Source of the DNA: Octopus vulgaris
Taxonomy: Eukaryota
DNA: 64,000 bases
Direction: 5' to 3'
Assembly: GCA_951406725.2 (NCBI GenBank)
Contig: OX597823.1
Location: 70,990,001 to 71,054,000 of the forward strand
This document shows positions 4,198 to 60,488 of this stretch, one piece after another; positions within the stretch are counted from its first letter, which is position 1, and each line of letters starts with the position of its first letter. The notes under the pieces are model-generated. The model saw only the letters and a program-made list of their open reading frames with translations, did not search any database and had not been told where the DNA came from. The translations under genes were made by a program, and so were the position numbers.

Positions 4198-4573
4198 GTA
4201 GGATAAAATTTTTTTCGAAAAAAATTGTCCAAAAAAATTTTATCAATGGCCAGCATATTAAAAAATACCTTTAAAGGTTAAAATTATAAACAATTCATAG
4301 ATAAGGGCAAACGAAAAAATGTCTAATGCCAACTATGCCGAAAAGTTGGACATATTGTCCATTAACCATATAATTTTTTCACAATACGCACGCTACACGA
4401 AAAAAGGTGGACAGAAATTTCTAAAATTCCATTATTACCATATCGGACCGATTTCAGGGTTAGCTTATAACAGCCCTCCCTTCGTCAGTGATACATGTGG
4501 CAAAAGAAATAAATGAGATACTTACTCATACCCATGGAAGAAGCAAAACACTTTCGTTTGCCCTTATTTATGA

Positions 4574-4691: not shown

Positions 4692-4731
4692 CTACAATTG
4701 TTTCTTGTCTTGATCGACAATCTTCAGGTGG
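4692..4731 (-). ncRNA. Type I hammerhead ribozyme core (3' arm of stem I lost)
   Basis: The minus strand reads ccac CTGAAGA ttgtc-gatcaa-gacaa GAAA caattg TA g, with a perfect 5-bp stem II and palindromic stem III acaattgt. The inverted partial copy at 4928-4963 keeps the gtgg arm of stem I. Confidence 0.75.
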
Positions 4732-7455: not shown

Positions 7456-7881
7456 GTAAGTAGAAATTAGTTTTATTTGTATAATACTTCTCATACTAAT
7501 GTTAAATTATATTTAACAACCGAACATAGAATAATTATTCACCCAAATTAAAATCTTTGTGCCAATGGCCTCGTATTCTTCTCTCTACAAGGCCAAGGAA
7601 GGTCGAAACTACATTATCTGTCAACACCAGTGGTCATAGCTGATATAAACCCGAGCGCTTATATGCACCGCAAGTCCAGGAGCGGTTCTTTCATGTTCGA
7701 ACACAACATCCTCTTTAAGTGGGAGATAAATATTACCTTTGAAATTAGTACAGCTTCTGCGCTCTTGTATATATATATATACACACCGGAGTAAACACAT
7801 AAATGTGAAACAAGGTGGAAAAAAGTGTACTCAAATACCAGGGGTTGAGTAATATGCTTTATTTAAAAGCAGCAGAAATTC

Positions 7882-7935
7882 AACAAAACCTGTTACTCGG
7901 AGTTTCACGTTTCCGTTCGTCGGACAGTTTTTGTT
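7882..7935 (-). ncRNA. Type I hammerhead-fold motif with variant CCGA core
   Basis: The minus strand reads aacaaaaactgt CCGACGA acg-gaaa-cgt GAAA ctc-c-gag TA acaggttttgtt. Confidence 0.7.
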
Positions 7936-8055
7936 AAAATCGGACAGTTTTGTTTATATATATACCGGAGTAAACACATACATGTGAAAAAGGTGGAAAA
8001 AAGAGTATTCAAATACCAGCGGTAGAGTAATATGCTTTATTAAAAAAAACTGTTT

Positions 8056-8108
8056 AACAAAACTGTCCGACGAACGGGAACGTGAAACTCCGAGTAACAG
8101 GTTTTGTT
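8056..8108 (+). ncRNA. Type I hammerhead-fold motif with variant CCGA core
   Basis: aacaaaactgt CCGACGA acg-ggaa-cgt GAAA ctc-c-gag TA acaggttttgtt. Stem I is 11 bp with one bulge, stem II is capped by a GNRA loop, and the cleavage triplet is GUA. Confidence 0.72.
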
Positions 8109-8134
8109 GAATTTCTTCTGCTTTTTTAAATAAA

Positions 8135-8202
<68 letters not shown>

Positions 8203-14761: not shown

Positions 14762-14837
14762 ATAGCCAGATAACCGAAGAGATGGTGTTGTGGATTTCCA
14801 CTTCGGCATCTGAAACTCAGAGTTTTATCTTGACTAT
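14762..14837 (+). ncRNA. Type I hammerhead-fold motif with variant CCGA core
   Basis: atagccagataa CCGAAGA gatg-(gtgttgtggatttccacttcgg)-catc t GAAA ctcagag TT ttatcttgactat. Stem I is agataa/ttatct and can be extended; stem II is gatg/catc; stem III is actc/gagt. Confidence 0.6.
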
Positions 14838-15016: not shown

Positions 15017-15052
15017 GTTTCCGAAGAAGAGCGTCTGCCCGAAACGTTAAAC
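15017..15052 (+). ncRNA. Minimal hammerhead-fold motif with CCGA core (same family as 60444-60488)
   Basis: gttt CCGAAGA a gagc-gtct-gccc GAAA cgt TA aac. The downstream ctttc...ctgagcatctgctaata is shared with the 60.4 kb copy. Confidence 0.55.
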
Positions 15053-15213: not shown

Positions 15214-15470
15214 AACGTAGGTTAAAATTCTATCAATGGCCAGCATATTTAAAAATACCATTAAAGGTTAAATTTATAAACAATTTATATGTAAGGGCAA
15301 AAGAAAAAAATTTTAATGCCAAAATATGCCGAAAATAGACACAACGTCAATAACAATGTAATTTATCACTACAAGCACGCGTTTTGAAGAAAGCCGATAG
15401 AAATTTCTAAAAAATCCCGTTATTACCATATCGGACCCGATTTCAGAGTTAGTTCATAAGAACCTTCCCT

Positions 15471-17017
15471 GCAACTGGCAAACTTCCAAGAAAACTGAAG
15501 GAAGGTAAAATATGCCCTATTCATAAAGGAGGTAGCAGAGCGGAGGCCAAGAACTACATACCTATCTCTCTGACCTCACACATCAGCAAGATCATAGAAC
15601 GAATAGTCAGAAGGAAACTGATCACCTTCCTTGAAGAAAATGACTTGCTGCCTGACACCCAACATGGTTTCCGACCAGGAAGAAGCTGCTTAACTCAGTT
15701 CCTACAACACTATGACTGGGAGCTGAAACGACTGCTCAACTACTCAAATGTGGAAGTGATATATCTCGACTTTGCAAAGGCCTTTGATAAAGTCGATCAT
15801 GGAATGATATGTCACAAACTGCGTGATCTTAGCATAGTTGGAAAACTGGGAGAATGGCTACATGACTTTCTGAAAGATAGAAGTCAGGTGGTAGTAGCCA
15901 TTAAGACGCAAATAGTGAGCGGTGTTCCGCAGGGCACTGTTTTGGGACCACTATTGTTCATAATGGCCCTCTCAGACATGCCCTCAGCCACGCAGAGAGC
16001 CACGATCACAAGTTATGCAGATGATACAAAAGTTTCACAGGCAATACAGAACCCTGAAGACACTAAACGCCTGCAATGTGAGCTGGACAAAATATACAAG
16101 TGGGCTGAAAAGAATAGCATGCAGTTCAATGCTGAAAAGTTTCAAGCTTTATGCTATCAGCATGCAAAACTAAATGCAATACCCAATGAATACACTGGAC
16201 CCGGAGGAATTGCAATCCCAGAGGCACAATCAGTGCGTGACCTGGGTATTTACATGAGTGATGACGCAACCTTTCGTGTACATGTTGCTAAATTGGTAAT
16301 GAAATGTAGACGACTGGCCGGATGGATTCTTAGAACCTTTAGAACAAGAGACCAGGAAACCATGATGGTCCTCTGGAGAACACTTGTCCTAAGCCACTTT
16401 GACTATTGCTCTCAGCTATAGTCACCATCCAGTGTCAAGTTGATCAGAGAACTTGAGGCGATCCAACGTAGCTACGCGAAGAAGATAGTCTCTGTGCAGA
16501 ATATAAGCTACTGGGAAAGACTCAAGAGATTAAAACTCTATTCCTTGGAGCGTAGGCGAGAAAGATATGCCATAATATACATCTGAAAGATCCTGGAAGG
16601 ACTTGTCCCAAACTTTGGTATCGAGAGTTACACAAATGCCAGAACTGGGCGCCACTGCGTGGTGCCAAGGACTCCAAATTTGCCATCAAGATGTAGGACA
16701 AGATACTGTGATAGCCTGGGCTTCCTAGGTCCACAGCTCTTCAATATCCTCCCGAAGAACCTAAGAGACCTGCATGGGGTAGATGCAGATGTCTTTAAAA
16801 TGAAACTGGATCTCTTCTTGTCAGGTATCCCAGATGAACCAACTTCACGGCAGGAGGTGCAGATGAGGGCAGTTGCATCGAACTCTCTCATGCACCAAAT
16901 GGCAGCTGCTAAAAAGCATTCGTGAAGTAAAACGATGTAGCAACACCAAATGGCGGTGCCCCAGCATGGCCACAGCTCGTGAGCTGAAACTAGAATCAAT
17001 CAATAAATCAATCAATC
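15471..17017 (+). mobile_element. 5'-truncated CR1/L2-group LINE (RT pseudogene)
   Basis: RT motifs QHGFRPGRSCLTQ, YLDFAKAFDKVDH, SGVPQGTVLGPLLF and YADDTK (ORF 15645-16421). In-frame stops follow downstream, then a 3' stem-loop and an (AATC)n tail. Confidence 0.92.
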
Positions 17018-60443: not shown

Positions 60444-60488
60444 AGAGGATTTAAGGTTTCGAGCAAAGCTCTTCTTCAGAAATAGAGG
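60444..60488 (-). ncRNA. Minimal hammerhead (canonical core) in a TA-flanked short repeat
   Basis: The minus strand reads tattt CTGAAGA a gagc-ttt-gctc GAAA cct TA aat. It is the same family as 15017 and 62136. Confidence 0.6.

Follow-up and report, generated by a model that had tools for sequence, protein, structure and literature searches.

Penelope-like retrotransposons of Octopus vulgaris carry hammerhead motifs in which core position 4 reads C in place of U as the consensus of entire families or subfamilies (A1/A2, B, C and some D subfamilies), with U4 in sister subfamilies (A3 and other D subfamilies). At the family level, G5, G8, G12-A14 and U16.1 are constant. As read from sequence comparison, C4 would be an inherited subfamily letter, switched with U several times and tolerated in a slow, dimer- or protein-assisted ribozyme, a reading to which a probability of roughly 55% is assigned. 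The motifs lie in a 64,000-nucleotide stretch of contig OX597823.1 (positions 70,990,001 to 71,054,000; ‘the window’), for which the original prediction held that a CCGA core recurs in independent families as a tolerated or selected variant rather than through random decay, and proposed family consensus sequences as the check. That check gave the mixed picture above: random decay falls away, C4 being a subfamily or family consensus, and tolerance would fit the comparisons, but selection for C4 appears unsupported by them, since the U4 subfamily A3 is abundant with intact ORFs and family D has both letters.

Anatomy of the insertion at 7782-8135

The segment at 7782-8135 comes from a Hydra-clade Penelope-like retrotransposon with a small type I hammerhead: it is the element's end, comprising pseudo-LTR and tail, truncated and partly inverted. 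Between (TA)n tracts, 7786-8135 forms a compound insertion of three pieces: one on the minus strand carries a hammerhead and the tail, a further one is tail only, and the last is inverted and lies on the plus strand. The first (7786..7935, minus strand) is a 5'-truncated element end of subfamily A1 with a tail of ∼70 nt, adjoining a (TA)n tract. Its type I hammerhead (7882..7935, minus strand) has a C4 core (C3 at 7923, C4 at 7922), a GAAA loop II and a predicted cut between 7894 and 7893. The second minus-strand piece (7965..8041) holds tail only. The inverted copy (8046..8135, plus strand) terminates at 8135, the earlier of the two family 3' ends, with (TA)n after it, and contains a type I hammerhead at 8056..8108 (plus strand): stem I pairs 8056-8066 with 8097-8108, the core occupies 8067-8073 (C4 at 8068), and stem II (8074-8083) is followed by GAAA at 8084-8087, a near-palindromic stem III (8087-8095) and a predicted cut after 8096.

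Both copies thus read CCGACGA, and both keep the long stem I originally described, composed of 4 bp, one bulged G and 7 bp (11 bp in all). The loop II letters were likewise read correctly as two GNRA loops, GGAA in the plus-strand copy and GAAA in the minus-strand copy; however, GAAA belongs to a minority (5 among the first 100 of 1,507 A1 matches), and the subfamily-level GNRA change in family A is GGAA to GCAA. Alignments reveal that the two hammerheads are inverted pieces of a single insertion and are not independent; lying on opposite strands, they cannot pair as a cis dimer. Judged from the sequence, read-through RNA across 7782-8135 would make a long hairpin. Both copies are most likely inert fragments, the biology residing in master elements.

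Plus-strand T>C differences (A>G on the hammerhead strand, at 1.1, 17 and 15.1) occur at 7893, 7894 and 7903. They reach ∼8-13% depth in two runs that are presumably RNA (contigs, no matched DNA) and near 0% in the other two runs. The pattern resembles A-to-I editing of an inverted-repeat duplex. At 8068 the four runs list no change, which carries no weight here, as contigs of divergent U4 subfamilies may not have aligned at this place.

Assessed against the type I class, the A copies have three helices around the core and an open stem I, with a palindromic stem III of only 3-4 bp. Every position of the core C3 U4 G5 A6 N7 G8 A9 / G12 A13 A14 A15.1 / U16.1 H17 is matched except U4, and the motifs are a variant type I hammerhead rather than a canonical member. 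Rfam scans detected no hammerhead, either across the window (E≤1) or in 7860-8120 (E≤10), which says little because canonical-core Penelope hammerheads at 4488 and 38658 in the window were missed too. These two (minus and plus strand, respectively), together with one at 4727 (minus strand), are further canonical-core hammerheads belonging to other repeat families.

Position 4 in the Hydra-clade families A and B

By their motifs, A and B are Hydra-clade Penelope-like elements, the clade being defined by RWK, DKT and cysteine motifs (PMC8557442). Both have a single ORF with a reverse transcriptase (RT) followed by a C-terminal GIY-YIG domain, A being judged on A3 together with an A1 C-terminal fragment; (TA)n insertion, tandem and inverted copies and a tail are all present. 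Family B has intact 717-aa ORFs in tandem units of ∼2.6 kb, with RWK, DKT and a complete set of cysteine motifs (CxCX5C linker, CxxC, CxH); its GIY-YIG domain is a weak Pfam match (E 0.0098, below the cut-off). In family A, the tandem A3 units carry a 726-aa ORF with RWK and DKT, the unit measures ∼3.4 kb, and the second Cys of the CxCX5C linker is replaced by Phe, with CxxC and CxH present. The GIY-YIG-type endonuclease C-terminus was found in a longer A1 copy with the same hammerhead, which it precedes by 1,158 nt; Pfam returned no GIY-YIG match for this fragment. The A and B proteins are 44% identical. An assignment to a Neptune-type element was dropped, as the motifs match Hydra (PMC8557442), and a non-LTR retrozyme, made of short non-coding tandem monomers, is ruled out because in A and B the hammerhead comes after a protein-coding unit, of 3.4 and 2.6 kb respectively. 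Open 717-aa frames of family B are numerous (L322-L325, and many places in G000), with YKDD as the RT catalytic motif; from the many near-identical copies with open frames, the family is probably active.

The A and B hammerheads resemble those of the Hydra clade (Craig et al. 2021, PMC8557442) in being type I with a short palindromic stem III and one-letter loop, in their loose 10.1-11.1 pair and 3'-repeat position, and in the accompanying (TA)n targets and RWK and DKT motifs; family B is similar by eye to Hydra-1_Obim. Unlike the published elements in the available portion of that work, family A has a unit of ∼3.4 kb and the linker Phe. They also differ at position 4: in File S2 of the same paper, 26 of 26 Hydra-clade rows have U4, several with the same stem III, whereas the octopus has whole C4 subfamilies. 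C4 is, on the strength of these rows, likely the derived state. A1 copies end at either of two sites ∼70 nt apart, at (TA)n targets, and in A and B alike the predicted cut falls upstream of both 3' ends. Such a tail with two 3' ends is a signature described for Penelope-like elements; Poseidon of the green anole (Frangieh et al. 2024, PMC11167929) also has two adjacent 3' ends that define a tail, with the hammerhead upstream. Poseidon, however, belongs to a different clade, its cleavage was assayed and requires protein, and the accessible text mentions no core variant.

Three counts agree on C4 in subfamily A1. A core-type pattern with position 4 left free gave 90 C, 8 T and 2 A among the first 100 of 1,507 matches; anchors excluding the core gave 24 C and 2 T in the 26 scorable of 30 loci; and a hand count, again with core-free anchors, gave 64 C, 3 T and 1 A in the 68 legible copies among the first 100 of 512, the 32 incomplete or ambiguous rows being left out. 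Products of CpG decay are sporadic among the same 68 copies (CTGA 3, CCAA 11; hand count), in line with the original argument that such decay pushes CCG toward CTG and not the reverse.

A pattern for the whole A lineage, with five free positions, had 6,614 matches. Among the first 100 of these (hand counts), A3 was the commonest A haplotype with 55 copies, every one U4, and the remaining 45 comprised 43 C4 and 2 T4. The U4 copies of A3 fall within a 99%-supported clade with C4 copies of A2, in a tree of 138 columns rooted on one older, long-branch C4 copy. C4 persisted through A0, A1 and A2 although it forms a CpG, and the core series CCGACGA to CCGATGA to CTGATGA looks, from these sequences, like CpG deamination fixed in master copies. 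A1 and A3 are 70-76% identical across the 3' UTR. Their hammerheads differ only at positions 4 and 7, loop II, 11.1, the loop III center and the stem I bulge, and are identical at C3, G5, A6, G8, A9, G12-A15.1, U16.1 and A17. The 10.1-11.1 pair is A-U, A.G, A.C or A.A across the A subfamilies, and no compensatory stem changes were seen in the A lineage. The 5' ends of 100 family A copies, inspected by eye as a weak test, have no pile-up at the predicted cut site.

The window also holds a hammerhead of the young family B (14766..14830, plus strand), with a C4 core at 14774-14780, a long stem II and an extra U before the GAAA. Its best 30 matches show no difference from the window copy, the query having included the core; at four full-length loci chosen by protein, 7 of 7 hammerheads are C4. 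The relatives of B in the genome sample (71-89% identity) have U4 in 5 of 6 cases. Given the 44% protein identity between A and B and the U4 state of the nearer relatives of B, the proposed recurrence in separate families holds.

Families C, D and E and the genome sample

The genome sample, made up of the window and 140 evenly spaced 10-kb stretches (1.464 Mb in total), was searched with a structure descriptor at a score of at least 8. This returned 13 CC and 35 CT cores, whereas reversed sequence gave 0 of each; the motifs are not chance. A census allowing at most one core mismatch, and hence tilted toward conserved cores, found 34 canonical cores, 17 A6U and 14 U4C, with no other variant exceeding 2, and reversed sequence gave 2 matches in all. 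About a dozen other families in the sample have U4 in all or most copies.

Single CCGATGA hammerheads of other families occur at L128:9688 and L168:8169; the first has no relative in the 1.464-Mb sample, and the family of the second has C4 in 2 of 15 copies, the rest being mostly U4. At L242:2300-4550, a tandem array of ∼359-bp units, of which five share a strand and two are inverted, has a canonical-core type I hammerhead in every unit and appears retrozyme-like. Among the phage hammerhead matches listed (at least 131 matches at no fewer than 127 loci), C4 cases are too few to carry weight: 129 U4, 2 C4 and no A4 or G4.

Families C, D and E have hammerheads of the minimal type, with an extra letter after A9, a G10.1-C11.1 pair and no loop III. 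They share this design with the metazoan Penelope minimal hammerheads (Cervera and De la Pena 2014, PMC4209133). In the available part of that study, none of the 56 representatives has C4 (53 CUGA, 3 UUGA), the descriptor apparently having fixed the core, and the core variant described is U3-A8 rather than C4.

Two decayed members of the minimal type lie in the window. One, of the old family C (15017..15052, plus strand), has a CCGAAGA core at 15021-15027, the same letters as at 14774, both as predicted. The other (60448..60483, minus strand; C3 at 60479) belongs to a loop-TTT U4 subfamily related to C and D. The CTGAAGA reported at 60474 as a sibling of the 15021 copy was read correctly, at 60479 on the minus strand, but the copy is probably not a decayed C4, because its loop is common to a U4 subfamily (T4 in 6/6 loop-TTT matches). 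The claim of intact helices fails for this pair: one stem II pair is broken at 15021, and stem III is broken at 60479. A 302-aa open frame lies directly downstream of the family C copy (∼15450-16360) and resembles part of a LINE reverse transcriptase.

In family C, position 4 reads ∼64 C, 35 T and 1 A (first 100 of 105 matches; hand count). Its state is unclustered on the family tree, with 12 changes against 11.0 when shuffled; such scattered T is what decay would leave in an old family, or what poor resolution would produce. Family D, by contrast, separates by subfamily: one is C4 in 36 of 36 copies and another has ∼40 T4 to 5 C4 (hand count), the first letter of the count pattern leaving out a third, C4, subfamily found by the structure descriptor. 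Here the position-4 state clusters on the tree, requiring 5 changes where shuffling averages 12.8, and 0 of 300 shuffles gave so low a number.

Family E, a sister to C and D (L234:462, L253, L181 and other random stretches), carries a different substitution, A6U, which gives the core CUGUNGA in 27 of the 29 sampled copies. The rest of its core is kept, with G8 in 28 of 29 and N7 free (A 11, T 7, G 6, C 5), and in the 1.464-Mb sample A6U is about as common as U4C. Between C/D and E, a G-C pair of stem I is swapped to C-G. Hammerhead stems are wholly different between families and still paired.

No intact ORF was found in C, D or E. One degenerate C copy has a CX4CxxC linker ∼800 nt upstream of the hammerhead, with a possible likeness to the RT thumb; on account of this linker, C, D and E probably belong to another clade than A and B. 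Neptune-type elements, marked by a CX2-5CxxC linker behind the RT, are the candidate. In the copy at L279:350-750, the family C frame seems to end soon past the zinc-finger linker, followed by a CA-rich stretch common to other copies. This copy is possibly an endonuclease-less derivative.

Competing readings and significance

Published work suggests what a C4 core may cost. According to the literature, U4 makes contact with the phosphate linking A6 and N7. U4C reduces activity in vitro and still permits viroid infectivity (PMC3088659), and a deep-mutational study reports every CUGA single mutant as low in activity (PMC9901934). By analogy, C4 is expected to attenuate cutting. In Penelope hammerheads, a short palindromic stem III goes with weak cutting, carried out as dimers (PMC4209133; review PMC6765202), and the dimer dependence that the original prediction proposed for C4 is, on this analogy, a known trait of Penelope hammerheads generally and not C4-specific. 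The hammerhead of the anole element depends on protein, and insertion in vitro can proceed without that hammerhead (PMC11167929).

The preferred reading, tolerance of either letter, would work as follows. Tandem copies would be transcribed, two hammerheads would pair through the palindromic stem III or be folded by an element protein, and cleavage would trim the element RNA. If this step is slow or only partly needed, loss of the U4 contact would be cheap and master copies could replicate with either letter; C4 also creates a CpG that may revert by deamination, A3 being the likely case. Both common variants, U4C and A6U, hit the U-turn and spare G8 and G12, which fits a slow catalyst under selection, and a non-cutting structural role too. 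Several observations weigh on the other side: with every CUGA single mutant low in activity (PMC9901934), U4C in an already weak hammerhead could mean none; the A6U fixed in a sister family (27/29), as a second U-turn change, points equally to a loss of catalysis; and the 5' ends without pile-up, the rooting of A on a single long-branch copy and the unclustered state in family C all count against it.

Possible, though doubtful, is that the motif no longer cuts and is kept as a folded RNA, for protein binding, template positioning or RNA pairing, with letters 4 and 6 drifting. Fixation of two different U-turn changes in abundant families would follow naturally, and the loose 10.1-11.1 pair across A subfamilies and the missing 5' pile-up at the cut site are in keeping with it, as are the anole hammerhead mutants, which insert normally in vitro with no RNA reads ending at the cut site (PMC11167929). 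What speaks for continued catalysis is the persistence of G8, G12, G5, A9, A13, A14, U16.1 and a non-G at 17 while N7 varies freely; moreover, of the CpG-type changes open to CCGACGA, A3 fixed only those at 4 and 7, not those at G5/G8. A further, unlikely reading is that U-turn-defective hammerheads evolved repeatedly (U4C at least three times, A6U once) because the protein of the element itself rescues or gates them; they would then be protein-switched ribozymes, their rate tuned against keeping the RT start attached.

Positive selection for C4 as a brake is more doubtful still. Because a cut in the downstream hammerhead would remove the tail at which RT starts, slower cores would replicate better, and the placement of both family 3' ends downstream of the predicted cut is as this requires. 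U4C appears in three lineages or more, while the majority of other core changes do not reach the family level, and C4 lasted through A0, A1 and A2 despite its CpG and is found in 7/7 hammerheads of the young, intact-ORF family B. Against a brake stand the U4 subfamily A3, the commonest A haplotype with intact ORFs, and the dozen or so other families that are mostly or all U4; a circular template, as in the model of PMC4209133, would in any case retain the tail despite cutting.

It is very improbable that C4 serves to block mispairing of the core with the near-palindromic loop III. In silico, a U4 placed in B pairs the core with loop III at -20.4 kcal/mol, versus -13.3 kcal/mol for the hammerhead fold, and the U4 sisters of B mostly have a different loop III; yet A3 joins U4 to the same loop III, which largely refutes the idea, C and D carry C4 without any loop III, and U-G wobble would still permit the pairing in the sisters of B. 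Random decay of dead copies, for which only the individually decayed copies at 15021 and 60479 speak, is refuted by C4 being the consensus across thousands of copies, and likewise among young copies that are nearly identical.

U4C itself has been described in a viroid (Ambros and Flores 1998, via Perreault et al. 2011, PMC3088659), where the same substitution is a single variant in a full hammerhead; in the octopus, retroelement families whose stem III is of the dimer type have it as their consensus. The literature search found U4C only in that viroid, in the accessible text, and no report of it as a Penelope-family consensus, which is new as far as the search reaches. Figures and Lunse et al. 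2017 (PMC5785218) lay outside its scope; the latter, on Penelope hammerhead variants, may already describe C4. The available portions of bioRxiv 10.64898/2026.07.22.740005, PMC7229834 and PMC11014351 do not mention C4. Searches with CUGANGA fixed miss much of this diversity: the evenly spaced sample holds 31 U4C or A6U cores versus 34 canonical ones.

The octopus genome offers natural sister pairs that differ at position 4 (A2 versus A3, the D subfamilies, and B versus its sisters), some with intact ORFs, and these provide ready matched pairs for asking whether cutting matters to transposition.
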